Source: Saprospiraceae bacterium (GTDB lineage: Bacteria > Bacteroidota > Bacteroidia > Chitinophagales > Saprospiraceae). Taken from it: DNA of 26,803 nucleotides. The DNA lies in the NCBI GenBank assembly GCA_044378705.1, contig JBIPOY010000001.1, positions 1 through 26,803 of the forward strand, in the 5' to 3' direction. Made by a program: the position numbers and the translations under genes. Of the stretch, positions 3,559 to 20,696 are shown one piece after another. The number at the start of each line of letters is the position of its first letter. Position 1 is the first letter of the stretch. Below the pieces are notes generated by a model. That model ran no database searches, was not told the DNA's origin, and was given only the letters and a program-made list of their open reading frames with translations.

Positions 3559-3635
3559 GTAGCGACTTAGAGGGTCGCTTCTGAGACAAAAAATGGGCCT
3601 TTGGGGGCCGGACCGCAGGCCACCTATGTCGTTTT
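3559..3635 (+). repeat. Dispersed ~77-bp hairpin repeat (REP/REPIN/MITE-like), copy 1
   Basis: gtagcgacttagagggtcgcttctgagacaaaaaatgggcctttgggggccggaccgcaggccacctatgtcgtttt aligns with the copies at 6185, 7304, 9879 and 20617. Confidence 0.8.
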
Positions 3636-3814
3636 AGACAAAATTAAGATATCCTTAAATCTCGCTGTTACACGATAAGTATCCCCATAAACCATTATTT
3701 TTGTGGTAAGTATTCCATTTTAGTATTTCCTCTTTCTTCTAGGGCCTCTGTAAGACACTTCTCTCCAAGAGAACGTGATTTATCTTTTTGATCACTCTTA
3801 AAATGCATTAGAAG

Positions 3815-5167
3815 ATGAAAAAGTCCTACATCTTATTTTTTCTCCTCGCAACCACGGGTTATTTCCTTGGTTGTATCCATGATTCAGAAGCAAGTGTCGA
3901 CCAGCAACTGTTGGACTTGTTGAACATCCACTCTAAAACAGAATCTTACACAGGATATGCAATGCCGGAAAGTACCGACTTTGCGTCCCTTCCCAACCAA
4001 GATTCTAAAAACCCTGTGACTGCCGCCAAGGTCGAATTGGGGCGAATGCTTTTTTTTGAAACAGGCCTTGGATTACAGCCAACATACCCCATTTCAAAAA
4101 TCGCCTACTCCTGTAGCTCATGCCACATCCCTTCCCGGGGGTTTACAGCAGGCCGCTTTCAGGGCATTGCAGATGGCGCGCTCGGCTTTGGAACGGCGGG
4201 AGAAGCGCGCACTAAAAACCCTCTCTATACGGGGGATGAAGTAGATGCTCAGGGCGCAAGACCACTTCCTACCATCAACCTCACCTACGTTACCAATGCC
4301 CTGTGGGCCGGCACTTTTGGTTCCTTCCACGTCAATGTGGGGACGGAGTCTGCCTGGCGTCAAGATACCTTGGTAGAAATCAACTTGAAAGGACTGGAGG
4401 GCTTGGAAGCCAACAATACAAGGGCTCTGATCGTTCATCGGCAGGTAATCAACAAAGACGTGACAGACTCTCTCGGCTACACCGCAATGTTTGATGCCGC
4501 ATTTCCGGAGATACCCGTCAGTGAGCGCTACAGCCGGGAAACGGGTGGTTTTGCCATAGCAGCCTACTTTCGGACAATTTTGACGAACCAGGCGCCTTTC
4601 CAACGGTTTGTAAAAGGTGAAAAAAATGCGATGTCAGAACAACAGAAAAAAGGAGCCATACTCTTTTTCGACAAAGCGGGTTGTGTAAATTGTCATAATA
4701 GCCCTTCTCTGAACAGTTCCCCACACCAGTTTTTTTCCCTCGGTGTCAAAAATCTTTATCAAAACGGTCACAACGTTTTTAGAACAGGTGCATCCGACAA
4801 ACGAAACCTGGGACGAGGAGGGTTTACCGGCGTGCCAAATGAAATGCACAAGTTTAAGGTACCACAATTGTACAACCTTAAAAATGTCGGTTTCTATTTC
4901 CACGGGGCCAGTAAAAACTCTTTGCGTGAAGTAGTTGAATATTTCAACAACGGAATTCCAGAAAACTCGGAAGTGCCCGCCAGTCAAATCTCGGGATTTT
5001 TCCGCCCACTGGGTCTGACAAACAACGAAATAGACGATTTGGTAGAATTCTTGGAAAATGGATTATTCGACCCAAACTTACAGCGATATGCTCCTACTGT
5101 AACCATGTCCGGAAATTGCTTTCCAAACAACGATGCCCTATCAAGAATTGAAACGGGGTGTAATTGA
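3815..5167 (+). CDS. Di-heme cytochrome c peroxidase / MauG-family lipoprotein
   Basis: Lipobox FLGC at residues 17-20; two heme motifs CSSCH and CVNCH; family motifs KVELGRMLFFE, FKVPQLYNL and YFHG. Confidence 0.88.
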   Translation: MKKSYILFFLLATTGYFLGCIHDSEASVDQQLLDLLNIHSKTESYTGYAMPESTDFASLPNQDSKNPVTAAKVELGRMLFFETGLGLQPTYPISKIAYSCSSCHIPSRGFTAGRFQGIADGALGFGTAGEARTKNPLYTGDEVDAQGARPLPTINLTYVTNALWAGTFGSFHVNVGTESAWRQDTLVEINLKGLEGLEANNTRALIVHRQVINKDVTDSLGYTAMFDAAFPEIPVSERYSRETGGFAIAAYFRTILTNQAPFQRFVKGEKNAMSEQQKKGAILFFDKAGCVNCHNSPSLNSSPHQFFSLGVKNLYQNGHNVFRTGASDKRNLGRGGFTGVPNEMHKFKVPQLYNLKNVGFYFHGASKNSLREVVEYFNNGIPENSEVPASQISGFFRPLGLTNNEIDDLVEFLENGLFDPNLQRYAPTVTMSGNCFPNNDALSRIETGCN

Positions 5168-5176
5168 TTTGTAATA

Positions 5177-5250
5177 ATAATTACTTTGGTGGTCGCGTCT
5201 GGTTCAAAAAAACAAATTTTTTATCATGACGCGACCACCAAAATAGTTAC
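5177..5250. repeat. Dispersed hairpin repeat, copy 2 (symmetric doublet of the left half)
   Basis: 15-bp perfect arms tttggtggtcgcgtc (5185-5199) / gacgcgaccaccaaa (5228-5242); ends in gttac like the other copies. Confidence 0.75.
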
Positions 5251-5561
5251 TTTTTTTGTCAAATACGTTCTTGAACTAGGTAAAAGTAACTTGGATAATA
5301 CCACATTCACTACCGATAACCCGACAATTTAAACCCAAACAGATGTGTGTAAAACAAACAAAATCAACACTTTAATATTATTTTTATTAAAAAATTAAAG
5401 GTCTAAACCGGGCGATGATAGGTCGTTCAGTGTCCTTTCAAGGCAAACAACAATACCGCACCTTTGTATTGTCAATAAATGATTGAAAAACGACGACGGG
5501 GATATTATAAAAATTGACAACCTGATATTACAAATCTTTCATGAGATTATACAAGGGAAAT

Positions 5562-5600
5562 AAGCTGCGGCGCAAATGTGTGCTGCGGCTTTTTCTTGTT
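5562..5600 (+). terminator. Intrinsic terminator in the ccp-brx intergenic region
   Basis: 13-bp stem aagctgcggcgca / tgtgctgcggctt with three G-U pairs that work only on the + strand, a 4-nt loop, then tttcttgtt. Confidence 0.7.
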
Positions 5601-5746
5601 TATTGGCCACTGCCACTTGCTGAAAAGATTCCAAACGCATGTACCCTCTCCGTATATTTTCACCAAAAATAAAACCAAGGGGCCATTTTTGATGTTTACC
5701 TTCGTGGTTCAACCATTTCTAAACATTTACTCACCCATACATAACT

Positions 5747-6160
5747 ATGTATCCGATAGCACTAACAGCACCGATGGCCCAAGATCTGACAGATTTTGGC
5801 TTTGAATCGCTTTCAAACGCTGATGCGGTAGAGCAGCTCTTTGAAAATCATGAAGGAACAACCCTCGTTGTTGTGAACAGCGTATGCGGCTGTGCTGCTG
5901 CTATGGCACGTCCAGGCGCAAAACTTTCACTCCAAAACGAAAAAAAACCCTCCAATCTTTTTACTGTATTTGCTGGGGTAGATGCTGAAGCAACTGCAAA
6001 AGTTCGCGAGTTTTTGGCTCCTTACCCTCCGTCATCCCCAAGTATCGCCTTGCTCAAAGACGGACAAGTGGTACACATCTTAGAGCGCCGACATATTGAG
6101 GGCCGTTCTGCACAAATCATCGCAGACAACCTGCGCGCTGCATACGATATGTACTGCTAA
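5747..6160 (+). CDS. BrxA/BrxB family bacilliredoxin (YphP/YqiW-like)
   Basis: VVVNSVCGCAAAMARP with the CGC active site; TVFAGVDAEAT, PPSSPSIALLKDG and ERRHIEGR motifs; -7-like box TACCTTCG at 5697-5704. Confidence 0.93.
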   Translation: MYPIALTAPMAQDLTDFGFESLSNADAVEQLFENHEGTTLVVVNSVCGCAAAMARPGAKLSLQNEKKPSNLFTVFAGVDAEATAKVREFLAPYPPSSPSIALLKDGQVVHILERRHIEGRSAQIIADNLRAAYDMYC

Positions 6161-6184
6161 TGGTTGTTGCTGTAACTTTTTTTC

Positions 6185-6262
6185 GCAATCACTTCGTTGT
6201 TCGCGTCTGAGAAAAAAAGTACCCATTTTGGGGTCAAACAGCGTGGCCTCCCAAGTTATTAC
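6185..6262 (+). repeat. Dispersed ~77-bp hairpin repeat, copy 3
   Basis: gcaatcacttcgttgttcgcgtctgagaaaaaaagtacccattttggggtcaaacagcgtggcctcccaagttattac. Confidence 0.75.
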
Positions 6263-6324
6263 CTTTTTTAAAACACATGGGGATATTCCAACTGTTTGGA
6301 ATATCCCCATGTGTTTTAAAAAAG
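6263..6324. terminator. Long perfect inverted repeat between convergent brx and gldN, likely bidirectional terminator
   Basis: 29-bp perfect arms cttttttaaaacacatggggatattccaa / ttggaatatccccatgtgttttaaaaaag with 4-nt loop ctgt. Confidence 0.7.
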
Positions 6325-6336
6325 AATTAATGAATG

Positions 6337-7194
6337 CTACCAACTCCACACATCGTGTTCTCGGTTGAAGAGTTCCGCTTCAATTTTTTCTGCCTGCATC
6401 ACCAAATCGAGGCCCGAGTACATATCCTGTAACCGAAGGTCTTGCACGTTGTTTTCTTTTATAATGGTGGAAGCAAAATAGCGCATCTCAAAAATATCTT
6501 CCCATGTGGTGTTATTGGCCCAGTTGTCGTTGTGCGTAACCGCCTTGTGCTGTGCCAACAACGCACGAGCGGAAGGGTAGTGTACCCAAAACAAGGGCAT
6601 CTCCAGTCTGAAATCACCATTTTCATCGCGAACCTCGAGTAAAGGCGCAATGCCCAGTATTCGGTGTTGAAGGGTTGCTGTTTTGGCATCAAAAAACCAC
6701 GACTCCTTGATACGGAATCTTTTTACATCCTCCCAACTCACTTCATTTTGGATGACCTGTACTTTGTCATCACCGGTGACCACATCAATGGTGAGTATTG
6801 TATCGGTTTTATACAATTGGCGTTGAATATCAGAAACCGCAAGACGTTTGGTAAAACGATCATTCTCCGTGGAATATACCGGAAGGTCTCCAGCAAGGGC
6901 AGCTTCAAAAATGATTTGAAACAAAGGCGATTCCGGTGCGGAAAATGATTGGTTAATTTTTTCCCGAACATCCACGAGCCTCCAAATGCGTTTTTCCCAC
7001 AGAATATCAGCCTCTCGAATGGGTTGGTAGGGTAGTGAACGGTGATTGGTCACCACGGTTCGTTCCGTGATATCGTCCAATGGACCCGGTAATGCCATTT
7101 CAGATTCTTGTGCAAAAACCACGGTATTCAATAGTAATCCCCCGGCGAGACAGCCCATAAATCGGACTGACCGCACAGACAACAGGTTTGTCAT
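6337..7194 (-). CDS. gldN: Gliding motility / type IX secretion protein GldN (PorN) homologue
   Basis: Signal peptide; LPYQPIREADILWEKRIWRLVDVREKINQ, FRIKESWFFD, RILGIAPL, LFWVHYP and TWEDIFEMRYF motifs. Confidence 0.9.
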   Translation of the reverse strand: MTNLLSVRSVRFMGCLAGGLLLNTVVFAQESEMALPGPLDDITERTVVTNHRSLPYQPIREADILWEKRIWRLVDVREKINQSFSAPESPLFQIIFEAALAGDLPVYSTENDRFTKRLAVSDIQRQLYKTDTILTIDVVTGDDKVQVIQNEVSWEDVKRFRIKESWFFDAKTATLQHRILGIAPLLEVRDENGDFRLEMPLFWVHYPSARALLAQHKAVTHNDNWANNTTWEDIFEMRYFASTIIKENNVQDLRLQDMYSGLDLVMQAEKIEAELFNREHDVWSW

Positions 7195-7303
7195 GTCAGT
7201 AAAAAGTTAATAGCGGTGAAAAAATAGAGTAGCTGACCACGTGCTGTGCACAGCACCGCGGAAATATCAAACAAACATGGATGTTGAAAAACCTTGTCCT
7301 AAG

Positions 7304-7379
7304 GTAACGACTGCGGTGATCGCGTCTGAGACAAATAGTGGCTAGTGATTGGGACACACGGTACCACCTCAGTTGTTAC
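7304..7379 (+). repeat. Dispersed ~77-bp hairpin repeat, copy 4
   Basis: gtaacgactgcggtgatcgcgtctgagacaaatagtggctagtgattgggacacacggtaccacctcagttgttac; the outer 15-nt arms pair at 14 of 15 positions counting one G-U. Confidence 0.8.
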
Positions 7380-7438
7380 GTTTCAAGAACAATATGAAAA
7401 CGGTTCAAGAACGTACCGTATTTTCCCTGTTAATAATT

Positions 7439-8002
7439 TTAACAATCAGTAACGCTGCGGTGGTTTTGACCAAGCGACATAAACTTGGCAAACTCGAGTA
7501 AGGAATCAAACGCAAAATCAACTTTTACGGTAGACAATAGGTCTAGCTCTTCTATTTTTCCGCGTATCAACACTGTATGGAGACCAAGCCGGTTGGCAAA
7601 TTCGATGTCGGACATAGAATCACCCACCATCCATGCATTTTCAAAATCTATTTCCGGAAAATCTTCCAAAGCTTGCCAAGCCATTCCTGTTGCCGGTTTA
7701 CGACAAGGACACCCGTTCTCGCGGGTGTGTGGGCAGTAATAAATGCGATCAATTCGCCCACCGGCATCGTTGGCAATCCGCATCATTTTTTGATGTATGT
7801 CGGCCAATTGCATGGTACCCATCAGACCTTTACCCAATCCTTGTTGGTTTGTAACCACAAGGATTGGGTCAAAGATGATTGAAAGAAGTTGTAACGCTTC
7901 TCCTAAGCCATGCAACGGAACAAATTCCTCCGGTGATTTTACATATTCACCCGGTGTTCGCCGGTTAATGACTCCATCACGGTCCAGAAAAAGGGTAGGC
8001 AT
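7439..8002 (-). CDS. gmhB: HAD-IIIA phosphatase, D,D-heptose 1,7-bisphosphate phosphatase (GmhB) / histidinol-phosphatase family
   Basis: LFLDRDGVIN motif I, VVTNQ, YYCPH...CPCRKP zinc motif, WMVGDSMSDI; substrate specificity not provable from sequence. Confidence 0.75.
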   Translation of the reverse strand: MPTLFLDRDGVINRRTPGEYVKSPEEFVPLHGLGEALQLLSIIFDPILVVTNQQGLGKGLMGTMQLADIHQKMMRIANDAGGRIDRIYYCPHTRENGCPCRKPATGMAWQALEDFPEIDFENAWMVGDSMSDIEFANRLGLHTVLIRGKIEELDLLSTVKVDFAFDSLLEFAKFMSLGQNHRSVTDC

Positions 8003-8013
8003 ATAGCAACAAC

Positions 8014-9243
8014 TTAGCCGAAGGCATTAAAACCTGTCACGTCGTGCCCTGTTATGAGCAAGTGAATGTCGTGTGTACCTTCATACGTCAACACTGTTTC
8101 CAGGTTCATCATGTGGCGCATAATAGGGTACTCATTGGTAATGCCCATTCCACCGTGGATTTGTCGGGCTTCACGGGCAACTGTCAAGGCCATGTGAACG
8201 TTGTTGCGTTTGGCCATACTCACTTGAGCGGAAGTTACTTTACCCTCATTGGCCAAAGTACCGAGCCTCCATGCCAGCAATTGGGATTTGGTAATTTCTG
8301 TGATCATTTCAGCCAATTTTTTTTGTGTCAACTGAAATGCGCCAATGGGTTTGCCAAATTGTTCCCGCTCTTGCGAGTAGCGAAGGGCGGAGTCATAACA
8401 ATCCAATGCCGCACCGATGGCACCCCAAGCAATACCATAACGAGCTTTGGTCAGGCAGGTTAAAGGGCCTTTGAGACCAATAACACCGGGAAGGATGTTT
8501 TTCTTGGGGACACGAACATCTTCAAAAACCAATTCACCGGTGATACTGGCCCGGAGGCTCCACTTGCCATGAATTTCAGGGGCAGAAAACCCTTTCATAC
8601 CTTTTTCAACAATCATCCCCAGTATTTTTCCTTCCTCATTTTTGGCCCATACAACAGCGATGTCTGCCACAGGAGAATTGGTAATCCACATTTTAGATCC
8701 GTTGAGGATGTAGCAATCGCCATCGTCTTTCACATTGGTAAGCATTCCGCTGGGGTTGGAGCCGGCATCGGGTTCTGTAAGGCCAAAACAACCGATCATT
8801 TCACCACTGGCAAGTTTTGGAAGGTAATGCTTACGGTGTTCTTCGGAGCCGAACTTATAAATCGGGTACATAACCAAGGAACCTTGTACAGATGCCATGG
8901 ACCGGATGCCAGAGTCACCCCGTTCTAGCTCTTGCATGATAATTCCGTAGGCAATTTCATCCATGCCTCCGCATCCATATTCTGCAGGAAGAGACGGACC
9001 AAATGCCCCAATCTCAGCCAAGCCCTTGAACAAGTGGGTGGGGCATTGGGCCCTGTTGGAGTAGTCTTCAATAATAGGACTAACTTCTGATTTAACCCAT
9101 TGGCGCACGGCATCGCGTGCCAACAGATGTTCTGATGAAAGCAAGTCATCAACGCCATAGTAATCATGGTGCTGGAAGCGGTCTTCGCGAGCACTGCGTT
9201 TTGCTTGCTGCTGGGCGATGGTTTCTGTGCCGTTCGATTGCAT
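8014..9243 (-). CDS. gcdH: Acyl-CoA dehydrogenase, glutaryl-CoA dehydrogenase subfamily
   Basis: ELERGDSGIRSMASVQGSLVMYPI, GCFGLTEPDAGSNP, NGSKMWITNSP, SLRASITGEL and MNLETVLTYEGTHDIH motifs; -7 box TAATTTTG on the minus strand at 9296-9289. Confidence 0.85.
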   Translation of the reverse strand: MQSNGTETIAQQQAKRSAREDRFQHHDYYGVDDLLSSEHLLARDAVRQWVKSEVSPIIEDYSNRAQCPTHLFKGLAEIGAFGPSLPAEYGCGGMDEIAYGIIMQELERGDSGIRSMASVQGSLVMYPIYKFGSEEHRKHYLPKLASGEMIGCFGLTEPDAGSNPSGMLTNVKDDGDCYILNGSKMWITNSPVADIAVVWAKNEEGKILGMIVEKGMKGFSAPEIHGKWSLRASITGELVFEDVRVPKKNILPGVIGLKGPLTCLTKARYGIAWGAIGAALDCYDSALRYSQEREQFGKPIGAFQLTQKKLAEMITEITKSQLLAWRLGTLANEGKVTSAQVSMAKRNNVHMALTVAREARQIHGGMGITNEYPIMRHMMNLETVLTYEGTHDIHLLITGHDVTGFNAFG

Positions 9244-9408
9244 GTTAATATCGAATAATGGTTAGGTATAAGATGGAATAAACTTAGGCAAAATTAAAGA
9301 AAGTTTGTATTCAGCCGATTGTATTTTATTGAAAAAAGCATTTTAGACAAAATATTATTTCAAAAACAAAGCTAAACATATAAAAAAACAAAGATGGTTT
9401 GGTATTGT

Positions 9409-9747
9409 TCACCATTCCCAACCTTCTAGGTCATCTAGTGGTTGTGTTTTAATATTTTTTTTGGTATTGATTCGTTGTTTTTGGCGTTCAACCACCAACC
9501 TTGCCAGTCCAATATTGGCTGGCTCTGGCGCATCCGGTCGCATGACGGGTCTTATTTTCTCCTCCAACACGTCTAGGCGATAGAGTAGGCTCATCAATTG
9601 TTCGGGTTGATGTTCCAGCATTTCACCTATTTTTTCAGCGAGTATAAGAATCAATTCTTCTTCCTGCACAACAGATGTTGTGTCCGGGAGATTGAAGTGG
9701 CCGGTTACCAGCGACACTGTTTGTTGAATCAATGGATCTTTGTTCAT
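9409..9747 (-). CDS. Hypothetical protein (112 aa)
   Basis: Open frame with protein-like content (LMSLLYRLDVLEEKI, ARLVVERQKQRI); ATG at 9747 preferred over the track start at 9771 because a TACCTTTG -7 box (minus strand, 9764-9757) lies between them. Confidence 0.8.
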   Translation of the reverse strand: MNKDPLIQQTVSLVTGHFNLPDTTSVVQEEELILILAEKIGEMLEHQPEQLMSLLYRLDVLEEKIRPVMRPDAPEPANIGLARLVVERQKQRINTKKNIKTQPLDDLEGWEW

Positions 9748-9878
9748 ATTGATTGTCAAAGGTAGGGGCAATTAGAAGATTGTTCGCGGTTGCTCCGTAC
9801 TTTTGCTTGGCAATAATTGAATTAGTACTTTTGGGGTGCGCAAACAGTTGGCTTCCCTTGGGTTGCTGTTCGATAAAA

Positions 9879-9955
9879 GTAACTACTTAAGTGGTTGCTT
9901 CTGGGACACAAAATAGGCCTTTTGGGGCCAGACAGCGCGCCATCTCTGTTGTTAC
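9879..9955 (+). repeat. Dispersed ~77-bp hairpin repeat, copy 5
   Basis: gtaactacttaagtggttgcttctgggacacaaaataggccttttggggccagacagcgcgccatctctgttgttac. Confidence 0.85.
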
Positions 9956-9993
9956 ATATTACGTTAATCTTATTCATGAACGGTTCCCTGTGA

Positions 9994-10001
9994 TAAATTT
10001 G
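9994..10001 (+). promoter_or_regulatory. -7 promoter box for the lpxC/fabZ-lpxA-ABC operon
   Basis: TAAATTTG, 33 nt before the ATG at 10035. Confidence 0.55.
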
Positions 10002-10034
10002 CCGGAAGCCACTACATCTTTAACATCCACCTAG

Positions 10035-11462
10035 ATGAAACAATCTACCATACAAAAATCGGTTTCTGTACATGGTGTGGGCCTACATACGGGAAAGAAC
10101 GTACGGCTTACATTCAAGCCCGCCGAGGCAAACCATGGCTTTCGCTTTCAACGTGTGGATCTTCCGGATCAACCTGTTATACCGGCGGATGTAAAATTGG
10201 TTATTTCGACCAACAGGGGTACTACGATCAAATTGGGTGATGCGCAGGTGTCAACGGTGGAGCACGTTCTTTCAGCCCTTACCGGGTTAGGGGTTGACAA
10301 CGTCTTATTGGAAATAGACGGCCCTGAAATGCCCATCATGGATGGAACCTCCATGCCGTTTGTATTGGCCCTTCAGGAAGCCGGCATTGTGTTTTTGGAT
10401 GCAGCCCGAGAGTATTACGAAGTTACAGAGCCCATTTCTTATAAAGATGAGGTTACGGGTACTGAAATACTGGCGTTGCCCTCTGATCACTTTGAAGCCA
10501 CCGTTATGATTGACTTTAAGTCAACTGTTTTGGGGCATCAATTTGCCTCGTTGAGCAATATTGCTGACTATGTGCAGGAAATAGCGCCTTGCAGGACATT
10601 TGTTTTCGTCCATGAATTGGAGAAGTTATTAGACATGGGCCTGATAAAGGGTGGAGACATGGAAAACGCTATTGTGATTGCAGATCGAACAATGGCGCAA
10701 GAGGATCTCGATCATCTGGCGAAAAAACTGGGAAAGCCAGGTATAAAAGTTGATGCTGAAGGTGTGCTCAATACGGTTAAGCTACATTTTCAGAATGAGC
10801 CAGCCAGACATAAGCTACTGGATATTATTGGCGATTTGGCGCTGATTGGAAGGCCCATTCGTGGTAAAATAGTGGCTACGAAACCCGGCCATACTGCCAA
10901 TATCGAGTTTGCCAAAATTCTAAAAAAGTCGATGCTGGAAAAACGCCGTATGCTTGGAATCCCCAAGTATGATCCGGAAAAAGAACCGGTGATGGACATC
11001 AATGCGGTGATGCAGTTATTACCCCATCGTTATCCATTTTTATTGGTCGACAAGATTATTGAAATCAGCGCTACGCATGTTGTTGGCATAAAAAATGTCA
11101 CCATGAACGAAGGTTTTTTTCAGGGGCACTTCCCATCCAACCCTGTGTTTCCGGGTGTCTTACAAATTGAGGCCTTGGCACAAACCGGTGGAATACTGGC
11201 CTTGAACAACGTACCCGATAAAGGAAACTGGGATACATATTTTCTTAAAATTGACAATACTAAGTTTAAAGCGAAGGTAATGCCTGGCGATACCCTCATC
11301 CTGAAAATGGAACTCATTGATCCTATACGGAGGGGGATTGTTCACATGCAAGGCACCGCCTACGTAGGCAGTAAAATTGTTTCTGAGGGCGAACTGACCG
11401 CTCAGGTGGTACGCCGCACGAAAGAAACACCCGATAACTCATGTACAACACCAAATGAGTAG
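10035..11462 (+). CDS. lpxC: Bifunctional UDP-3-O-acyl-GlcNAc deacetylase / 3-hydroxyacyl-ACP dehydratase (LpxC-FabZ fusion)
   Basis: LpxC motifs GVGLHTG, STVEHVLSAL, NEPARHKLLDIIGDL and GH; FabZ motifs LPHRYPFLLVDKI and FFQGHFP.NPVFPGVLQIEALAQ. Confidence 0.97.
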   Translation: MKQSTIQKSVSVHGVGLHTGKNVRLTFKPAEANHGFRFQRVDLPDQPVIPADVKLVISTNRGTTIKLGDAQVSTVEHVLSALTGLGVDNVLLEIDGPEMPIMDGTSMPFVLALQEAGIVFLDAAREYYEVTEPISYKDEVTGTEILALPSDHFEATVMIDFKSTVLGHQFASLSNIADYVQEIAPCRTFVFVHELEKLLDMGLIKGGDMENAIVIADRTMAQEDLDHLAKKLGKPGIKVDAEGVLNTVKLHFQNEPARHKLLDIIGDLALIGRPIRGKIVATKPGHTANIEFAKILKKSMLEKRRMLGIPKYDPEKEPVMDINAVMQLLPHRYPFLLVDKIIEISATHVVGIKNVTMNEGFFQGHFPSNPVFPGVLQIEALAQTGGILALNNVPDKGNWDTYFLKIDNTKFKAKVMPGDTLILKMELIDPIRRGIVHMQGTAYVGSKIVSEGELTAQVVRRTKETPDNSCTTPNE

Positions 11463-11539
11463 TGTATTCCAAAACCATCGTTGCGATCACCACAATAACC
11501 TCAACCGTGTTTACCGCAACGAAGCAACAACTCATTGCA

Positions 11540-12337
11540 ATGAAATATTCTAACGGCTTACGAGACATACACCCCAAGGCTCAAATTGGCCAAAACGTAA
11601 CGATTGGTTCTTTTACTACGATAGAAGAAGATGTTGTTATCGGCGATGGCTGCCAGATTGGATCAAATGTTCATATTTTTAATGGCGCACGTATCGGGCA
11701 GGATTGCAAGATTTTCCCAAGCGCCTCTATTAGTGCACCACCTCAGACCAGACAAATACTCGAAGAGGCCGCAATCCTTGAAATTGGTAGCGGTACAGTT
11801 ATTCGGGAGTGTTGCACCCTCAATCGCGGAAATCTTAAGTTTGGTGGCAATACCATTATTGGAGAAAACTGCCTGTTAATGGCCTATGTACACGTAGCGC
11901 ACGACTGTGTAATTGGCCATGATTCTGTTTTGGCAAACAATGTTACGTTGGCCGGCCACATCAACGTGGGAAAATGGGCCACGCTAGGGGGTATGGTTGC
12001 TGTTCACCAATTTGTACGTATCGGCGAACAAACCATGATTGGCGGCGGCTCTCTGGTCAGAAAGGACGTCCCTCCGTTTGTAACTGCAGCGAGAGAGCCT
12101 TTATCATACGCGGGTATCAATACCTTGGGACTCAAACGTCGCGGGTTTGAAAAAGACGAAATGCACCATATTGAAGACATTTACAGAATTCTTTTTGTAC
12201 AAGGTTACAGTATAAACAAGGCGATAAAAATAATTGAGCAAGACCTTCCTCCAACCATTTATCGACAACAAATAACCAGTTTTATTCAAGGTGCAAAACG
12301 CGGATTGATGAAAGGCTTCCGCTCAAAAAACGCATGA
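11540..12337 (+). CDS. lpxA: Acyl-ACP--UDP-N-acetylglucosamine O-acyltransferase
   Basis: Hexapeptide left-handed beta-helix repeats; MAYVHVAHDC, LAGH, VHQF and KDVPP motifs; ATG at 11540 (MKYSNGLRDIHPKA) fits LpxA length better than the track start at 11462. Confidence 0.93.
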   Translation: MKYSNGLRDIHPKAQIGQNVTIGSFTTIEEDVVIGDGCQIGSNVHIFNGARIGQDCKIFPSASISAPPQTRQILEEAAILEIGSGTVIRECCTLNRGNLKFGGNTIIGENCLLMAYVHVAHDCVIGHDSVLANNVTLAGHINVGKWATLGGMVAVHQFVRIGEQTMIGGGSLVRKDVPPFVTAAREPLSYAGINTLGLKRRGFEKDEMHHIEDIYRILFVQGYSINKAIKIIEQDLPPTIYRQQITSFIQGAKRGLMKGFRSKNA

Positions 12338-12954
12338 ACATTACGCTAAAGAATATTGGCAAACGATATCGTCTCGATTGGGTTTTCAAGGGCATTGATT
12401 TCAACTTTGAACAACGGGGGCGATACGCAATTGTTGGCTCAAACGGTTCCGGAAAATCTACACTTCTAAAAGTCCTTTCCGGGCACCTTAGTCCTTCAAA
12501 AGGTAGTATTACTTTTAGCCATTTTGATAAAATTATTTCGGAAGATCATATTTATCAACAGGTGAGTTATGCCGCTCCATACATCGACCTCATAGAAGAA
12601 CTCACATTGGAGGAGGCCATCGGGTTTCATCAAAACATAAAACCCCTAATTTCCGGTATTACGGCGGTTAAATTGCTGGATATACTTGCTCTTCCCAAGG
12701 CTCAAAGAAAAGAGATCAGACATTTCTCTTCCGGCATGAAACAACGGGTGAAACTAGCCCTTGCCATTTGCTCCGATACGCCCATACTTCTCCTTGATGA
12801 ACCCTCCACCAACCTTGACCAACAAGGGATCGAATGGTACAAAGCCCTCGTAAAAGAGTTTTCTGCCAATAGACTCACCATCATTGCTTCCAATGATCCG
12901 CACGATATTTCTTTTTGTCAATCGCAATTGAATATATTGGATTATAAAAAATAG
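12334..12954 (+). CDS. Stand-alone ABC ATP-binding protein
   Basis: Walker A GSNGSGKST, signature FSSGMKQR, Walker B LLLDEP; overlaps the lpxA stop (ATGA). Confidence 0.92.
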   Translation: MNITLKNIGKRYRLDWVFKGIDFNFEQRGRYAIVGSNGSGKSTLLKVLSGHLSPSKGSITFSHFDKIISEDHIYQQVSYAAPYIDLIEELTLEEAIGFHQNIKPLISGITAVKLLDILALPKAQRKEIRHFSSGMKQRVKLALAICSDTPILLLDEPSTNLDQQGIEWYKALVKEFSANRLTIIASNDPHDISFCQSQLNILDYKK

Positions 12955-12969
12955 CCCAACTTCTTCCAC

Positions 12970-13035
12970 TGAGTGTTTACGAGAAACCCGTTATTGTTCC
13001 ACGTGGAACAATAACGGGTTTCTCGTAAACACTCA
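12970..13035. repeat. Perfect 66-bp palindrome with no loop, centred on parS
   Basis: tgagtgtttacgagaaacccgttattgttccac|gtggaacaataacgggtttctcgtaaacactca; all 33 pairs checked. Confidence 0.95.
12995..13010. promoter_or_regulatory. parS: parS centromere-like ParB binding site
   Basis: TGTTCCACGTGGAACA is a perfectly symmetric match to the widespread chromosomal parS consensus. Confidence 0.85.
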
Positions 13036-13140
13036 TATACCTGTTATGCTTTCATGATTGCCTTCGCGGTAGGCTCCAAGACAAAAAAATAGGTGCGCGA
13101 CTGAATTGTTCAATACCCTGCCAGTATCGTTCGGATATTC

Positions 13141-14766
13141 CTACAGGCGCGTAATGATAACCACAACCCTTCGGTTTAACGCACGCAGTGCGTCGGTAGA
13201 GTTGTCATTCAATGGCGACTTGGGGCCTTTCCCCAACACAGAAATACGCCCATCCGAAATTCCTCTTTTTACCAAAAATGATTTTATTGCCTCCGCCCGC
13301 GACTCCGACAAACGAATCAGGTCTTCTTCCTTTCCCTGATTGTCGGTGTATCCCACAATTTGAATGGCAATAGACGGGTTTTTTGCGAGGGTCAAAAACA
13401 AATGATCCAATGATGAAAATGAACTTTCTAAAATCGTTGCGGTGGATTGTTTAAAAAATATTGGCTGAAGCTCAATTTTAGTATCTACAAGGAGCGGGTC
13501 AAGGTATAGATCGATGTATTGTTCCCTAAAATAATAGTAATCCCTCCTATATAATAATTGCTCCACCTCACCGGCAAAACCAGGAAAATTTGCGACCATT
13601 TCAACCCCAACCCCTTTGGGGATTTTAAGGTGAAACAAACCATCCGTCGTGGTAAATTGATTGTTTTCTCCGTTCGCCATTGCATAATACACATTGGCAC
13701 TTGGTATTAAGGCATGGGTATTGCGGTTGATCACACGCCCAAAGACCTCTATTTCTGTTGCTTGAGGCGGTGCAATTCTTACCCGATATATATCACTGTT
13801 CCCACCCCGTTTAGAAGCAAAATATAAAAATCCTGATGTCATATTAAAATACGGCTGACTGTCGTCATACAGAGAATTAATTGGATCCCGTGCTGGGGTA
13901 GGGGCCGACCAATGGGTCCAAGTACTGTCTAAACGTTGCGATATAAATATGTCGTTCCCACCAATACTCTCTTCCCTGTTGGAAGAAAAATAGAGGGTGG
14001 TATTGTCCTCTGAAAGAAATGGCGTTGTCTCTCTACGAGCCGAGTTTATGGAAAAGCCCATGTGTCGGGGAGCACTCCACTGATGATCACCTTCCCGAAA
14101 ACATACGTATAGATCCATGTCTTTGGAATCAAATCGAACCGCAGACAGAATGAGAATTGACCCATCAAAACTCATGGTAAGACTTACATCAGACGTGATG
14201 GTATAGTAGTCTTTAATTTCAATCGGAGTGGGAAAGCTCCAAACAATACTATCCGCCACACGCAGAACCCGGGAAAAACCCTTCGTCATATCGCCGTTTG
14301 GAAGAAATTGATTCAGTACATAAAAAGCATTGGGATCTGGGGTTATCGTTACCAAACTGTTGGGCAACGCATTGTTCAGTGGATAACCAGGGTGCTGCAC
14401 TGCGGTGAACCCAATAGAGTCGCCAGACGCTATCCAAATATCTTGGTTGAAAGCAGATGCCTCAGGATTATTAATGCTCGTGCCGGCAATCTGAGAATAT
14501 ACCGTTCCCAGTATGGCTCTGTATTGTTCCGGAGTGTGCTTTAACGCCATATCAACACTGTCAATAAACAAGGTGCGATCAAAAATCGGATGTCCAACCC
14601 GCGTAAAATACAAGGTGCGGCCATCTCTACTCGTAACCGGCGTAATCTCCGGTTGAGTAGAATTGATAAAAGGTGGCAGTTTTTCTAAGGTAAAATATTC
14701 CTGTGAAACACCCGTAGGCGCCCAAAGAAGTAACAGCACCGCAAATAAAAACAATTGATTATTCAT
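13141..14766 (-). CDS. OmpA-family peptidoglycan-binding protein with PD40 (WD40-like) beta-propeller repeats, PorE-like architecture
   Basis: Sec signal peptide; PD40-like repeats (INSARRETTPFLSEDNTTLYFSSNR, INSLYDDSQP...LYFASKRGGNSDIY); C-terminal OmpA-like domain IQIVGYTDNQG...LSESRAEAI...NRRV. Confidence 0.9.
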   Translation of the reverse strand: MNNQLFLFAVLLLLWAPTGVSQEYFTLEKLPPFINSTQPEITPVTSRDGRTLYFTRVGHPIFDRTLFIDSVDMALKHTPEQYRAILGTVYSQIAGTSINNPEASAFNQDIWIASGDSIGFTAVQHPGYPLNNALPNSLVTITPDPNAFYVLNQFLPNGDMTKGFSRVLRVADSIVWSFPTPIEIKDYYTITSDVSLTMSFDGSILILSAVRFDSKDMDLYVCFREGDHQWSAPRHMGFSINSARRETTPFLSEDNTTLYFSSNREESIGGNDIFISQRLDSTWTHWSAPTPARDPINSLYDDSQPYFNMTSGFLYFASKRGGNSDIYRVRIAPPQATEIEVFGRVINRNTHALIPSANVYYAMANGENNQFTTTDGLFHLKIPKGVGVEMVANFPGFAGEVEQLLYRRDYYYFREQYIDLYLDPLLVDTKIELQPIFFKQSTATILESSFSSLDHLFLTLAKNPSIAIQIVGYTDNQGKEEDLIRLSESRAEAIKSFLVKRGISDGRISVLGKGPKSPLNDNSTDALRALNRRVVVIITRL

Positions 14767-14846
14767 GGGTACAAAAGTAAAAAGCTTGCGCGTGTTAAAC
14801 TTGATATTATATTAATTCAAGACTACAAGTGCTTTACCTTAGCGGT

Positions 14847-17366
14847 ATGAAAAAACATATATTCTTCATACTCGCACTCATCCCTATGGCAATAAGCGCC
14901 CAATCCGGTAATACCTCTATCAGACAAACCCTGCAAACAACTGCCTGGGAGTTCCGTCAGGCCAATACTCCCGATTGGAAACCAACCAAAATACCGGCAA
15001 GTATTCATACCGCCCTGCTGCAAAACGGCCTGATAGACGACCCATTTTACCGGGACAATGAGGAAAATTTGCAGTGGATTGAAAAGGAAGATTGGGAGTT
15101 TCAAACAATATTCAACGTTGACTCCGTATTACTCTCAAAAAAACACATCGAACTTGTTTTCAAAGGCATCGATACCTATGCCCAAATTTACCTGAATGAT
15201 AGTTTGATACTCCAAACAGACAATATGTTCCGAAGCTGGAACGTAGATGTTAAAAAACTACTCCGCACCACCGGAAATAAACTTCACTTCTATTTTGAAA
15301 GCCCCCTCAACAAAACAGATGCCGCTTGGAAAGCCTTGGGGTACGAACTGCCGGGAGGCCAACGTACCATGACCCGAAAAGCACAGTTCCATTATGGCTG
15401 GGATTGGGGACCAAAATTTGTCGGATGTGGCATTTTAAAAAAACCGGAATTCCTAGCTTGGGATGATTTACTCATTGAAAATGTATTTGTTACCACCCAC
15501 AGTATTACTCCCGAACTAGCGAAAATGGTTGCGAGATTTCGATACCGCGCTGACTTCACGGGCCCGGTATCCATCTTTACAAGAGATGGAAAAAAGAAAT
15601 CCGTGGAAGATCGGAAATTATGGGAGGGCGTACACGAAGACTCTGTGACGTTTGAAGTCGAAAATCCAAAACTCTGGTGGTGCGCCGGAATGGGGGAGCC
15701 ACATCTCTACGATTTTTCTATCGAAATAAAAAAAGGGTACGTGTTGGCAGACAAAGCAGCCGTACGTATGGGCATACGAACAATAGAATTGGTGACACAA
15801 AAAGACGAAAAAGGATCTTCATTCTATTTCAAACTAAACGGTAAACCCGTTTTTGCAAAGGGCGCAAACTATATTCCACAAGACATTTTCCAAGACCGCG
15901 TCAAGCCTTCCCAATACAAAAAACTGCTCGATGATGTCGTCGCCTCCAACATGAACATGCTCCGCGTTTGGGGGGGCGGGATTTATGAAGATGACACCTT
16001 CTATCAACTTTGCGATACTCGTGGTATTTTAGTATGGCAAGATTTTATGTATGCCTGTGCCCTTTATCCTGGAAACGGCGCCTTCTTAACAACAGCCGCA
16101 AAAGAAGCACTCGAACAAATTGAACGACTGCGCCAACACCCTTCAATAGCACTGTGGTGCGGAAACAACGAAAACAACGAAGCCTGGAACAATTGGGGAT
16201 GGCAAATGCAATTCAATGAAGCCCAGCGAACACAACTCTGGCGCGATTACCAAGTGCTGTTCAACGACCTCTTGAGAACCTATGTAGAACGTAATGCCGG
16301 GAATGTACCCTACTGGGAAAGCTCTCCGAAGTTTGGCCGGGGAAATCCAAAATCACTGACAGAAGGCGATGCCCACTACTGGGGTGTTTGGCACGATGAA
16401 GAACCATTCGATGTGTTCAACAAAAAAGTACCCCGCTTTATGAGCGAATACGGATTTCAAAGTTTTCCGGAATGGCGCACCATACAGTCGTTCACACTGC
16501 CGGAGGACCAAAAATTAGACAGCAAAGTTATGCTGCTCCATCAAAAACACCCCCGCGGCAACGCACTGATTGCCGAGTACATGAAGCGTGATTTTAAAAA
16601 CCCAAAGTCTTTTGAAGACTTTGTATATGTAAGCCAACTCCTTCAAGCAGAAGGTATTCGTACAGGAATTGAAGCCCACCGCCGCAACAAACCATATTGT
16701 ATGGGTACACTTTACTGGCAACTCAATGATGTATGGCAAGCAGCTTCTTGGTCAAGTATTGACTGTTTTGGGCGATGGAAAGCATTGCAATATTATGCCA
16801 AAGAAGCATACAGTCCGCTGGCTGCGCTCCCTCTTGTTGAAGATGATATTCTGAAAATATACGGTATCAATGATTTGTCAGAAGAAAAAACAGTCGTACT
16901 ACAAGTCAGGGCATTAACCTTTGAAGGGAAGGTGTTGAGTGACGTCACACAATTAAACACACGCATAAAAACAGACTCCAGCTCCTTGATCTGGCAAGGA
17001 ACCACAAAAGGAATCCTAAATAAATACAAACCAGAGGGTTCCGTCGTAGAAATTCTATTAAAAGGAACCGACGGAAATATCCTGTACCGAAGACTGTACT
17101 ACTTCGTGTCACCGAAAAAATTATCTCTGTCCGATGCTTCCATCCGTATAAAAACAGAACAAATCACAGAAGGATACCAATTGACTGTTTCCTGTGAACG
17201 ACTCGCAAAAAACGTCCTTTTGGGCACATCCGTTGATGGCTTTTTCAGTGAAAACTATTTCGACCTGTTGCCTGGCGAACAAAAAACGGTTGTATTCAAA
17301 ACAGAAACAATCTTGGATGATCCCAACCAATCTTTTAAAGCCAAAAGCTTGGTCGATACTTGGTAA
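14847..17366 (+). CDS. Glycoside hydrolase family 2, beta-mannosidase-like
   Basis: RKAQFHYGWDWGP, KGANYIP, NMLRVWGGGIYE, LWCGNNE (acid/base), RFMSEYGFQS (nucleophile) and YWQLNDVW motifs; ATG 14847 gives signal peptide MKKHIFFILAL. Confidence 0.93.
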   Translation: MKKHIFFILALIPMAISAQSGNTSIRQTLQTTAWEFRQANTPDWKPTKIPASIHTALLQNGLIDDPFYRDNEENLQWIEKEDWEFQTIFNVDSVLLSKKHIELVFKGIDTYAQIYLNDSLILQTDNMFRSWNVDVKKLLRTTGNKLHFYFESPLNKTDAAWKALGYELPGGQRTMTRKAQFHYGWDWGPKFVGCGILKKPEFLAWDDLLIENVFVTTHSITPELAKMVARFRYRADFTGPVSIFTRDGKKKSVEDRKLWEGVHEDSVTFEVENPKLWWCAGMGEPHLYDFSIEIKKGYVLADKAAVRMGIRTIELVTQKDEKGSSFYFKLNGKPVFAKGANYIPQDIFQDRVKPSQYKKLLDDVVASNMNMLRVWGGGIYEDDTFYQLCDTRGILVWQDFMYACALYPGNGAFLTTAAKEALEQIERLRQHPSIALWCGNNENNEAWNNWGWQMQFNEAQRTQLWRDYQVLFNDLLRTYVERNAGNVPYWESSPKFGRGNPKSLTEGDAHYWGVWHDEEPFDVFNKKVPRFMSEYGFQSFPEWRTIQSFTLPEDQKLDSKVMLLHQKHPRGNALIAEYMKRDFKNPKSFEDFVYVSQLLQAEGIRTGIEAHRRNKPYCMGTLYWQLNDVWQAASWSSIDCFGRWKALQYYAKEAYSPLAALPLVEDDILKIYGINDLSEEKTVVLQVRALTFEGKVLSDVTQLNTRIKTDSSSLIWQGTTKGILNKYKPEGSVVEILLKGTDGNILYRRLYYFVSPKKLSLSDASIRIKTEQITEGYQLTVSCERLAKNVLLGTSVDGFFSENYFDLLPGEQKTVVFKTETILDDPNQSFKAKSLVDTW

Positions 17367-17421
17367 GAAACCAAATCCTGTTCAGTCTCAACTATTACAG
17401 AGCGGAAACAACCTGTAAATA

Positions 17422-17466
17422 AAAAGAGGGGTGATGTAGGAGCGCTTCCTACATCACCCCTCTTTT
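17422..17466. terminator. Bidirectional terminator between convergent GH2 and RND genes
   Basis: 20-bp perfect arms aaaagaggggtgatgtagga / tcctacatcacccctctttt with a 5-nt loop; T tracts on both strands. Confidence 0.85.
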
Positions 17467-17489
17467 ATGGGCAGACCACTTTATAGCGT

Positions 17490-20400
17490 TTATTCTTGGC
17501 TGGACCAAGGTGCATTTCCCCGTTTTTTACCACTTAAAAAAGTGTACATCGCCGGAATAACAAATAAGGTTAGAAGCAACGAAAACAACAACCCTCCCAC
17601 CACGACGACACCCAAGCCGATACGACTCGTACTGGCAGCACCCAACGAGAGTGCAATAGGTAGCGCACCCAACACCGTTGCCAAAGTAGTCATCAAAATT
17701 GGGCGAAGTCTCGCTTGAGAGGCCTCACGGACCGCCAACGCTTTATGCATACCCGCGTCACGTTTTTGATTGGCAAATTCAACAATCAAAATTCCATTTT
17801 TTGTTACCAAACCAATGAGCATAATCATACCAATCTGAGAGAAAATATTCATAGTATTTCCCGTAACCCAAAGGCTAAAAAACGCCCCGGCAATGGCCAA
17901 CGGCACCGTCAGCATGATGATAAATGGATCCCGGAAACTTTCAAACTGCGCTGCAAGAATGAGGTAAATCAGGCCCAGCGCCAACAGAAATGCAAAAGAT
18001 GTATTGCCACTGGATTCGCGAAAATCACGAGAAGGTCCACTTAAATCCGTATCAAAAGAATCGTCCAACAAACCCACTGATATTTTCTCCATCGCCTCGA
18101 TGCCCTCGCCAAGGGTATAGCCCGGGGCCATCGCTGCGCTGATGGTAGCAGATTTGTAGCGGTTGTAGTGGAAAAGTTGTGGTGGATTGCTTGTTTCCGT
18201 GAAACTAACAATATTGTCAAGTTGTACCATTTCCCCTCGGTTGTTGCGAACATACAGCGCCGCCAAATCCAGCGGCTCGTCGCGGTTCGCGCGATCTATC
18301 TGGCCTATCACTTGATATTGCCGGCCATTTTGAAGGAAATAGCCGAAGCGACGGCCTGAAAGGGCCAGTTGGAGTGACTGGCTTACATCCAAGACATTTA
18401 CCCCCAATTCAGCCGCTTTCAATCGGTCAATGGTCACCTGCAATTCCGGTTTATTAAACTTCAGATTGACATCCACATTCGAAAAAATGGGGTTTTTCCG
18501 TGCTTCTTCTAAAAATTTGGGGATAACATCTCTGATTTTATTGAAATCCAAGTTTTGTAGAATAAACTGTACCGGTAACCCCTGGCCAAAACCAATCGTA
18601 ATGGTCTGTTCCTGATTGGGAAACATCCTGGCCGTTGGCATTTTGCGGGTCATGCCCAGCAGTTGGTTGTATATCTGCATTTGGCTTCGCTCTCGCTCTT
18701 CCGGATCGTTGAGAAGCAAGCTAACAAAACCAGAGTTCGTACTAGCATTTCCAAAGCCCGGGGATGTGATCCCAAAGACCATTTTACGCTCTGGTACGGA
18801 ATCCATGAGGACTTGAGAAAGATCGTAAATGATTCGTTCCATTCGATCATAATCGGTTCCCTCTGGGGCTGTTACACTCGTACGAATGATGCTCCGATCT
18901 TCCAAGGGAGCCAACTCACTTTTAATTTCTCCTTGAAAAAACCAGATCATACCAAAACATACAACCAACATCACCAAGCTAAGCCAACGCCATTGCATAA
19001 ACGAACGCAAGGCATTCCCGTAAACGCGATCTAGGCCCACAAAAAATGGCTCCGTATAATGATAAAACCGTCCGTTATTTTTAATATTGCCACCCAACTT
19101 GACGTTCAACACCGGTGTTAGGGTTAGGGAAACAAACGCTGAAATCAACACGGCGCCTGCCACCACAATCCCAAATTCCCGAAACAGCCGCCCCGTAAAA
19201 CCCTGTAGGAAAACAACCGGAATAAACACGACCGCTAGGGTAATAGAAGTACTGATAACGGCAAAGAAAATCTCCTTGGTACCTTCTCGAGCCGCCGTCC
19301 ACTTATCCATTCCGGACTCAATTTTCTTGAATATGTTTTCGGTAACAACAATACCATCATCTACCACAAGGCCCGTTGCCAATACGATGGCGAGCAAGGT
19401 TAGTACATTGATACTAAAACCAAAAATATACATAATAAAAAAAGCACCTATCAGTGAAACCGGAATATCAATCAAAGGCCTCAAGGCGATGATCCAGTTG
19501 CGAAAAAAGAGGTAAATGATCAAAATTACCAAACCCACCGATATTAAAAGGGTATCTGTTACCTCACTGATGGCCCGACGAACAAACCGCGTTTTATCTA
19601 TGCCAACACTCATTACAATATCCGGGGGGAGGTCTTTCTGAATCTGTTCAAAACGCCGATAAAATTCATCCGTAATCTGCACCCAATTCGAACCCGGTTG
19701 CGGAATAACAGCCATAGAAACCCCTTGCACCAAATTGCGACGGGCACCGGTTTCTTCATTGTCGGGACCCAACATCGCCTCGCCAATATCTTTGAACCTG
19801 ATCGTACTGCTACCTGATTGCCGAACAATCATATTGTTGAACTCTTCCTCTGTCTGGAGCCGTCCAAATGTTTTTACGGTTAGCTCCGTAACATCTCCCC
19901 GGACTTTTCCGCCGGGCAATTCTACGTTTTCACGCGTCAGGGCGAGTTGTACATCTTGCGGGGTTAAACCGTGCGCCGTCATTTTTTGGGGGTCCATCCA
20001 CAAACGCATGGCTGGGAGCTTCGATCCAAAGACATTCACAGCCGATACACCGGGAATCGTTTGAATTTTTTCCCGGATGACATTTTCTGCGTAATCCGAA
20101 AGCTCAATAATACTGCGGGAGCTGCTCTGAATGGGAATAAAAAGAATAGGGTCACCACTGGCATCGGCTTTGGTAACCACAGGCGGCGCATCAATGTCTT
20201 GAGGTAAATTGCGCAACGATTGACTCACTTTGTCGCGAACATCGTTGGCCGCTTGTTCGAGTTCTACACTCAAATCAAACTCCACCGTGATGTTACTATT
20301 CCCCAATGATGACGAACTTGATATACTTCGGATACCCGCAATACCATTGATGGCGCGTTCAAGCGGTTCTGTGATCTGACTCTCAATGACTTCTGCGTTG

Positions 20401-20561
20401 GCACCCGTATAATTGGTTCGAACCGTTATATTGGGTGGGTCAATGGCCGGATATTCCCGGACACCTAAATAAAAATAACCAATGCCCCCAAAAACGACAA
20501 TGAGGATGCTAAAAACAGTGGCCATCACAGGACGGCGGAGCGAAAGTTCAGGTAGATTCAT
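17490..20561 (-). CDS. RND efflux transporter permease subunit (AcrB/MdtC-like)
   Basis: 1023 aa; proton-relay motifs LVVDDGIVV, GLVTKNGILIVEFA and RLRPILMT; typical N-terminus LSLRRPVMAT. Confidence 0.95.
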   Translation of the reverse strand: MNLPELSLRRPVMATVFSILIVVFGGIGYFYLGVREYPAIDPPNITVRTNYTGANAEVIESQITEPLERAINGIAGIRSISSSSSLGNSNITVEFDLSVELEQAANDVRDKVSQSLRNLPQDIDAPPVVTKADASGDPILFIPIQSSSRSIIELSDYAENVIREKIQTIPGVSAVNVFGSKLPAMRLWMDPQKMTAHGLTPQDVQLALTRENVELPGGKVRGDVTELTVKTFGRLQTEEEFNNMIVRQSGSSTIRFKDIGEAMLGPDNEETGARRNLVQGVSMAVIPQPGSNWVQITDEFYRRFEQIQKDLPPDIVMSVGIDKTRFVRRAISEVTDTLLISVGLVILIIYLFFRNWIIALRPLIDIPVSLIGAFFIMYIFGFSINVLTLLAIVLATGLVVDDGIVVTENIFKKIESGMDKWTAAREGTKEIFFAVISTSITLAVVFIPVVFLQGFTGRLFREFGIVVAGAVLISAFVSLTLTPVLNVKLGGNIKNNGRFYHYTEPFFVGLDRVYGNALRSFMQWRWLSLVMLVVCFGMIWFFQGEIKSELAPLEDRSIIRTSVTAPEGTDYDRMERIIYDLSQVLMDSVPERKMVFGITSPGFGNASTNSGFVSLLLNDPEERERSQMQIYNQLLGMTRKMPTARMFPNQEQTITIGFGQGLPVQFILQNLDFNKIRDVIPKFLEEARKNPIFSNVDVNLKFNKPELQVTIDRLKAAELGVNVLDVSQSLQLALSGRRFGYFLQNGRQYQVIGQIDRANRDEPLDLAALYVRNNRGEMVQLDNIVSFTETSNPPQLFHYNRYKSATISAAMAPGYTLGEGIEAMEKISVGLLDDSFDTDLSGPSRDFRESSGNTSFAFLLALGLIYLILAAQFESFRDPFIIMLTVPLAIAGAFFSLWVTGNTMNIFSQIGMIMLIGLVTKNGILIVEFANQKRDAGMHKALAVREASQARLRPILMTTLATVLGALPIALSLGAASTSRIGLGVVVVGGLLFSLLLTLFVIPAMYTFLSGKKRGNAPWSSQE

Positions 20562-20616
20562 GAGAAGATAAGGCCTTTGGCCATTGCGCGAAGTTCCATA
20601 TTTTTTTCTGCTTTTT

Positions 20617-20696
20617 GTAACTACTTAGGTAATCGCGTTTGAAACAAAAAATGAGTTTTTGGGGGCCAGACAGCCTGCCACCAAAGCATTTGCTAC
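20617..20696 (+). repeat. Dispersed ~77-bp hairpin repeat, copy 6
   Basis: gtaactacttaggtaatcgcgtttgaaacaaaaaatgagtttttgggggccagacagcctgccaccaaagcatttgctac. Confidence 0.85.

Follow-up and report, generated by a model that had tools for sequence, protein, structure and literature searches.

Introduction

Several families of miniature inverted-repeat transposable elements (MITEs) are known in bacteria, among them the Correia elements of Neisseria, ERIC/IRU and the RUP elements of pneumococcus. Here we examine a stretch of 26,803 nucleotides from a Saprospiraceae bacterium (assembly GCA_044378705.1, contig JBIPOY010000001.1, positions 1 to 26,803; hereafter the window), which holds six copies of an intergenic hairpin of about 77 bp with GTAAC...GTTAC ends. 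We find that these repeats very probably are a MITE family that carries the ends of a DDE-type insertion sequence (IS), namely a single-open-reading-frame element of the IS66 family (ISBst12-group type), and that has spread by transposition. Four lines of evidence lead to this reading: a target-site duplication (TSD), termini held in common with IS66-type elements, orthologous sites that are filled in one genome and empty in another, and a very high copy number. Like the bacterial MITEs named above, the elements are short, non-coding and hairpin-forming, are bounded by terminal inverted repeats (TIRs) and flanked by TSDs, lie between genes in hundreds of copies and several size variants, and would be mobilised in trans. 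They differ from these MITEs in their IS66-type parent, in their host, a freshwater Saprospiraceae-like member of the Bacteroidota, and in a partial bias of orientation with respect to GC skew. The duplication also differs: it is TA for Correia elements and 8 bp long here.

The closest described transposons are the ISBst12-group ISs. ISDge4 of Deinococcus geothermalis, for example, has TIRs GTAACTGCTCAGCA / GTGACTACTCAGCA, one open reading frame (ORF) for a transposase of 449 amino acids (aa), and an 8-bp direct repeat (PMC12898284). The window family resembles ISDge4 and ISBst12 itself in TIRs that start GTAAC-T (GTAACTGGTTAG here, GTAACTGCTCAGCA in ISDge4) and in an 8-bp target duplication, and the single-ORF layout of a full-length relative, found in a congener, matches that of the group. 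In contrast to these ISs, the elements studied here are 32-165 bp long, non-coding and about a hundred times more numerous.

In outward appearance, the repeats also recall the repetitive extragenic palindromic (REP) sequences and REPINs that are associated with the transposase RAYT (PMC3333891), which likewise are plentiful between genes, are palindromes of similar size and fold into long hairpins. However, REPs lack both a TSD and a DDE partner and are found on either side of a RAYT gene (PMC3333891); none of the three is true here.

A high-copy family with 8-bp target-site duplications

The window corresponds to contig C261 in a metagenome-assembled genome (MAG), here called G000, which is a 3.46-Mb draft in 534 contigs (47% G+C, N50 7.8 kb, 91% complete). 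For comparison, we used a congener (G009), a relative (G031) and a further MAG (G032). The repeat also occurs in close relatives, namely a MAG labelled 'Saprospiraceae bacterium' and a bin of freshwater origin, 'uncultured Bacteroidetes', and lake-water metagenomes contain the window nearly word-for-word.

The six copies reported by the first-pass annotation of the window can be aligned with one another, and an iterated nucleotide hidden Markov model (HMM) finds exactly these six there. Across G000, the same model returned 428 non-overlapping hits; BLAST revealed many of these to be halves of long forms, and merging them left 370 elements. These comprise 165 full short elements (~78 bp), 58 long ones (about 160 bp) and 147 partial ones, together 0.84% of the genome. 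The GTAAC...GTTAC ends and long imperfect hairpins that had been described are seen in the window copies, and in the family consensus, drawn from 115 full copies, the TIR is perfect over 16 bp (GTAACTGGTTAGGTGG) and the flanks are A/T-rich (young reference copy, L003:1060-1138). Two TIR subfamilies, a TGG-type and a TAC-type, differ at positions 7, 8 and 11; in each the two ends match one another, as would be expected of ends that bind a transposase.

Family members are non-coding, multi-copy, 32-165 bp in length, and present or absent at orthologous sites. The smallest, mini forms of ~32 bp (listed in Table 1), consist of the two ends (TIRs) only, and an 8-bp duplication accompanies each; few transposon derivatives that still resemble discrete insertions are smaller. 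A larger variant was also seen in G031, where a 306-bp long form (L074:264-569) carries ~140 bp of extra internal sequence, either a nested insertion or the mark of a larger progenitor.

Both ends could be defined for 152 elements. In 42 of these, the 8 bp on one side recur without a mismatch on the other, and in another 31 the two direct repeats differ at one position; a shuffled null gives 0.4 and 1.3. An 8-bp direct repeat with no more than one mismatch thus accompanies 73 of the 152, where shuffling yields 1.7. The targets so duplicated have an A+T content of 81%, and the median identity is 91% among copies whose duplications are intact. The result was replicated in G031 and G032, the duplication being perfect in 10/21 in one of the two and in 30/101 in the other. 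At the level of the family, therefore, a clear 8-bp TSD contradicts the earlier statement that no consistent TSD exists. The TSD had been overlooked because the copies in the window are old and their duplications decayed. Their identity to the consensus is only 68-78%, and they fall into the minor TAC-type subfamily. Around copy 4, a decayed 8-bp TSD can still be made out with 3 mismatches (GTCCTAAG at 7296-7303, GTTTCAAG at 7380-7387), and around copy 5 another with 5 mismatches (CGATAAAA / ATATTACG).

Filled and empty orthologous sites

Contig C198 of G031 is colinear with positions 2800-10700 of the window at 82% identity, and we compared the two genomes copy by copy. At copy 5, G031 is shorter by exactly 85 nt (77+8) and its flanks align on both sides, a clean empty site. 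At copy 4, the two sequences GTCCTAAG and GTTTCAAG of the window correspond to a single GTTCCAAG in G031, which has a MITE of its own 24 bp upstream whose target, CAAACAT(T/G), is single in the window; the two sites are thus reciprocally empty. There is no element in G031 at the place orthologous to copy 1. At copy 6, G031 continues without an element, and another MITE lies ~70 bp further on, where the G031 assembly breaks.

The remaining two copies mark places that have been hit more than once. At the junction occupied by copy 3, G031 also has an element, but it is of the TGG subfamily and lies in the opposite orientation, which indicates independent insertions into a hotspot. Just past the stop codon that precedes copy 2, G031 has two elements, one of them a long form with a perfect TSD (ATTGATTA). 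We also followed a young copy (C295:3230-3306) in four lake metagenomes, where assembler contigs enter the copy from both flanks and word depth within it is ~400x that of the flanks.

Termini of an IS66-family transposon

The termini of the MITEs recur on transposase-bearing elements. In G000, a 599-bp deletion derivative (C174:2771-3369) has MITE termini (GTAACTGGTTAG...), and its sole ORF, with DUF6444 and zf-IS66 domains, is the N-terminus of an IS66-type transposase. An intact IS is found in the congener G009 (L018:1366-2834). This element of 1,469 bp has the ends GTAACTGGTTAG / GTAACTATTTAG, a perfect 8-bp TSD (CCTTTAAC) and a single ORF of 464 aa (L018:1432-2826) with the domains DUF6444, zf-IS66 and DDE_Tnp_IS66 (PF03050, E=1.5e-35); its product and the truncated copy of G000 share 73% identity.

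These genomes hold other IS66-family sequences as well. A second intact ISBst12-type IS is present in G031 (L120:559-2031, on C325; 1,473 bp, 472-aa open frame) and has other ends (GTAAAAACTTAG); its ORF is 50% identical to the G009 transposase, and G031 also holds a fragment that is 72% identical to the latter. At least two lineages of this IS group thus occur in these bacteria. We also considered two canonical IS66-family DDE fragments of G000 (PF03050; C75:1257-1601 and C158:5-100) as the partner of the MITEs. As tblastn with the G009 transposase misses both, we assign them to another IS66 lineage and reject them as the partner.

Some observations weigh against this account of the family. 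The MITE and the full-length IS have only the outer 12-13 nt in common, and between its ends the MITE consists of a nested palindrome unrelated to the IS. A search of G000 for an intact cognate transposase gene, made in a fragmented, 91%-complete draft of N50 7.8 kb, met truncated pieces only (C174, C378 and C7); multi-copy ISs usually fail to assemble. For one young copy, present in all four lake metagenome runs, no empty-site allele was seen in assembler contigs. Finally, a simple model in which the two ends of a MITE are identical fails to predict the partial bias of orientation with GC skew that is described below.

The first-pass annotation had instead proposed a REP/REPIN-type element that spreads as single-stranded DNA through a RAYT or an IS200/IS605-type Y1 (HUH) transposase; on such a reading, targeting of the lagging strand would be the source of a strand bias. 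The hairpin shape, the GTA-type 5' end and the partial bias of orientation with GC skew are compatible with this proposal, and G000 does contain one Y1_Tnp gene (C167, E=1e-18). However, 8-bp TSDs are not a product of HUH/Y1 transposition, and the termini are the same as on IS66-type DDE elements. Moreover, the Y1 gene, which is IS200-like and the only one in G000, is on a contig without any copy of the repeat, so we found no association between it and the family, and the orientation bias amounts to just 61-65%, with whole contigs opposite. We regard this route of spread as exceedingly improbable. The annotation was right to see a MITE or non-autonomous mobile element, but mobilisation as single-stranded DNA is not supported. 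Its view that the repeat is not of a described family holds for this particular family, of which we found no description; the kind, an IS66/ISBst12-type MITE, is a described one.

Under the MITE reading, the element would be a non-coding, hairpin-forming sequence bounded by TIRs of 12-16 bp that start with GTAAC, and these TIRs would be recognised by an IS66-family DDE transposase of the ISBst12-group type, supplied in trans. Insertion would take place into A/T-rich 8-bp targets, which would thereby become duplicated. Which transposase copy mobilises the MITEs we infer, and we take the MITEs to be probably without a host function. A preference for A/T-rich targets would lead the copies to gather in intergenic DNA, often less than ~40 bp from gene 3' ends and whatever the direction of the gene. 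The gene contexts in the window bear out the earlier description of intergenic copies in tandem, convergent and divergent settings, and across the family the median distance from an element to a gene end is 40 bp for 3' ends, against 97 bp for 5' ends.

No sign of selection for a structured RNA

If the repeats were a structured non-coding RNA or a cis-regulatory RNA, such as a terminator, an attenuator or an mRNA-stabilising hairpin, they should be selected for the fold of the + strand. The consensus hairpin is indeed very stable (-45 kcal/mol with RNA parameters), and many copies lie near gene 3' ends, at the median of 40 bp given above. That closeness makes it probable that many copies are co-transcribed with the genes. 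Effects on transcripts are known for other bacterial MITEs, and effects of these copies on neighbouring transcripts are possible.

Nevertheless, selection for the fold is not what the copies reveal. The orientation of elements is independent of the direction of the flanking gene (74 vs 68 in G000, 46 vs 43 in G031). The first-pass annotation had held that G-T wobbles favour the + strand fold, but among 98 short copies G-T and A-C mismatches in the stem number 147:136 (p=0.55). It had also taken a T-A/C-G exchange between copies as compensatory. We find that double changes are confined to the TIR positions that define the subfamilies, and this exchange reflects the TGG- and TAC-type TIRs (positions 7, 8 and 11), with no independent covariation. 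A covariance-model comparison with Rfam families, Flavo-1 among the examples, gave no match at the gathering score in the window. With E up to 10, the window returned only matches to miRNA models at chance level, and the long form had no match either and holds no Rfam passenger motif. Added to this, the TSDs and empty sites show that copies arrive by transposition. Together, these data make an RNA function, as the explanation of the family, highly improbable.

Partial orientation bias relative to GC skew

In the first-pass annotation, the copies of the window were said to be co-oriented and perhaps replichore-polarised. To describe orientation, we labelled one strand of the MITE E+. Neighbouring elements in G000 show no coherence, 71 pairs having the same and 66 different orientation; a seemingly strong co-orientation of neighbours (129:66) came from counting the halves of long forms (about 162 bp) separately, and became 71:66 when these were merged. 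What does hold is an association with contig GC skew of 61-65%, that is, a partial statistical bias that has exceptions and does not amount to a defining polarity. Because every genome used is a draft, replichores were deduced from skew only, with the C-rich strand taken as the inferred leading-strand template.

Contig GC skew in G000 is strongly bimodal, with a median |skew| of 0.04. The E+ strand lies on the C-rich strand for 162 elements vs 102, contig majorities divide 80:41, and the share rises to as much as 65% at |skew|>0.03. The window contig, with a skew of -0.060, five E+ copies and one ambiguous copy, follows this trend. In G031, we used the replication component of third-codon-position skew on 19 long contigs (~0.9 Mb). 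Here agreement is 124:68, contig majorities are 11:5, and Spearman's rho is -0.48 (p=0.04). The contigs are very strongly heterogeneous (p=9e-7), with runs of 16+/2-, 9+/1-, 22+/5-, 0+/8- and 1+/8-. On the other hand, five clearly skewed G031 contigs run opposite to the trend (C63, 1+/8-; C321; C221; C77; C19), loci scored in G031 by 8-kb local skew have no bias (66:73), and in G032 the count of 15:12 comes from too few copies to judge. The orientation bias is thus a regional effect that is real but partial.

We considered several causes of the bias and rejected them. Polarity of the target does not account for it, as A>T and T>A duplications number 58:54, and neither does gene direction, at the 74:68 (G000) and 46:43 (G031) already given. 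A strand difference in hairpin stability would not serve as a general cause either. Only long forms differ in fold between strands, by ~7 kcal/mol, and short forms are biased yet fold equally well on both (-15.8 vs -15.8 kcal/mol). Dependence on age was inconsistent between genomes: young and old elements stand at 35:17 and 29:18 in G000, and in G031 young elements stand at 27:21 vs 96:47 overall.

It may be that the MITE reading is correct and that orientation is shaped by replication as well, through an asymmetric insertion of the transpososome at the fork or through loss of copies in one orientation, in which case the family would in part mark replichore polarity. Family-specific orientation biases of ISs relative to replication are documented; among them, the tendency reported for IS66a is weak, and none is reported in Bacteroidetes (PMC3971601). 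The trends in G000 and G031, the long runs on single contigs, and the lack of any link to gene direction or TSD polarity all point the same way. Opposed to it are the five contrary contigs of G031, the local-skew and G032 counts, the absence of neighbour coherence in G000, the equal folding of short forms on both strands, and the two independent insertions at the copy-3 junction, which lie in opposite orientations in the two species; replichores deduced from skew in draft genomes count on this side too. On balance, we hold a role for replication to be a serious possibility, though we lean slightly against it. More specifically, a DDE MITE with near-identical ends and a replication-linked preference, seen in two Bacteroidota genomes, where about two-thirds of copies agree in which of their strands falls on the C-rich strand, is a proposal that we put forward tentatively and with some doubt.

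As a class of selfish DNA, the family is ordinary; the partial strand bias is its sole unusual point. If the replication-linked preference is true, then IS66/ISBst12-type transpososomes would insert asymmetrically at or behind the fork, or one orientation would be preferentially lost, in a phylum without reported IS orientation bias. Should the bias hold in a closed genome, the family would offer a natural system for studying the coupling between replication and transposition in the IS66 family, a process of poorly known mechanism. For annotation, the consequence is that there is no need to treat ~370 hairpins between genes, which make up nearly 1% of the genome, as candidate RNAs, REPs or terminators; the abundance of MITE copies also accounts for the fragmentation of the G000 MAG. 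More generally, the family shows that single-ORF IS66-type elements have given rise to MITEs that do very well among freshwater Saprospiraceae-like bacteria, even as 32-bp derivatives made of ends only, and the many insertions dated by TSD decay and by filled or empty sites would be useful for tracing strain divergence in lake populations.

Copies and other features of the window

The positions of the window copies and of the mini elements are collected in Table 1. Copy 1 gives a full-length nhmmer match at 3559-3633 (57 bits) and is 73% identical to the family consensus. Copy 2 is called '-' by the iterated HMM, and its identity to the consensus is 0.68 on the + strand and 0.73 as the reverse complement; it lies 10 bp past the stop of a MauG-like di-haem gene, at an insertion hotspot.

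Table 1. Positions of the MITE copies in the window and of the mini elements in G000
Feature	Position	Strand	Description
MITE copy 1	3559..3635	+	Short form, TAC-type subfamily (old), degenerate right end; 26 bp past rnpA stop
MITE copy 2	5177..5250	.	Near-symmetric derivative, both arms of left-arm type; orientation ambiguous
MITE copy 3	6185..6262	+	Convergent intergenic region, 25 bp past bacilliredoxin (BrxA/B family) stop
MITE copy 4	7304-7379; with target duplications 7296..7387	+	Between gldN and gmhB
MITE copy 5	9879-9955; with 8 bp each side 9871..9963	+	Divergent region, 80 bp upstream of lpxC-fabZ
MITE copy 6	20617..20696	+	Divergent region between RND permease gene and fatty-acid hydroxylase gene; 59.7 bits
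Mini element	C221:996-1027		G000
Mini element	C282:5030-5061		G000
Mini element	C457:7119-7150		G000
Mini element	C55:237-268		G000
Mini element	C378:14751-14782		G000

Genes of the window include those for GldN, a component of type IX secretion, and for an LpxC-FabZ fusion, which mark the organism as a member of the Bacteroidota. Between two convergent genes lies a 66-bp perfect palindrome (12970-13035) with a parS-like TGTTCCACGTGGAACA at its centre; together with rnpA, this palindrome suggests that the contig may be close to the replication origin. The rnpA region is flanked by a gene for a DsbD-like thiol:disulfide protein (379-2571), which resembles TsoB-type selenoprotein models, and its neighbour around rnpA encodes a MauG/MbnH-like di-haem peroxidase (3815-5167).

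Two further hairpin-like sequences were noted in the window. Adjoining copy 3, between the convergent bacilliredoxin and gldN genes, is a hairpin (6266-6322) with a near-perfect 25-bp stem and A/T runs on either side, which is kept in G031 and resembles a bidirectional intrinsic terminator. A palindromic stretch at 7812-7888 falls within the ORF of a gmhB-like HAD phosphatase and has matches to miRNA models on both strands, at chance level.

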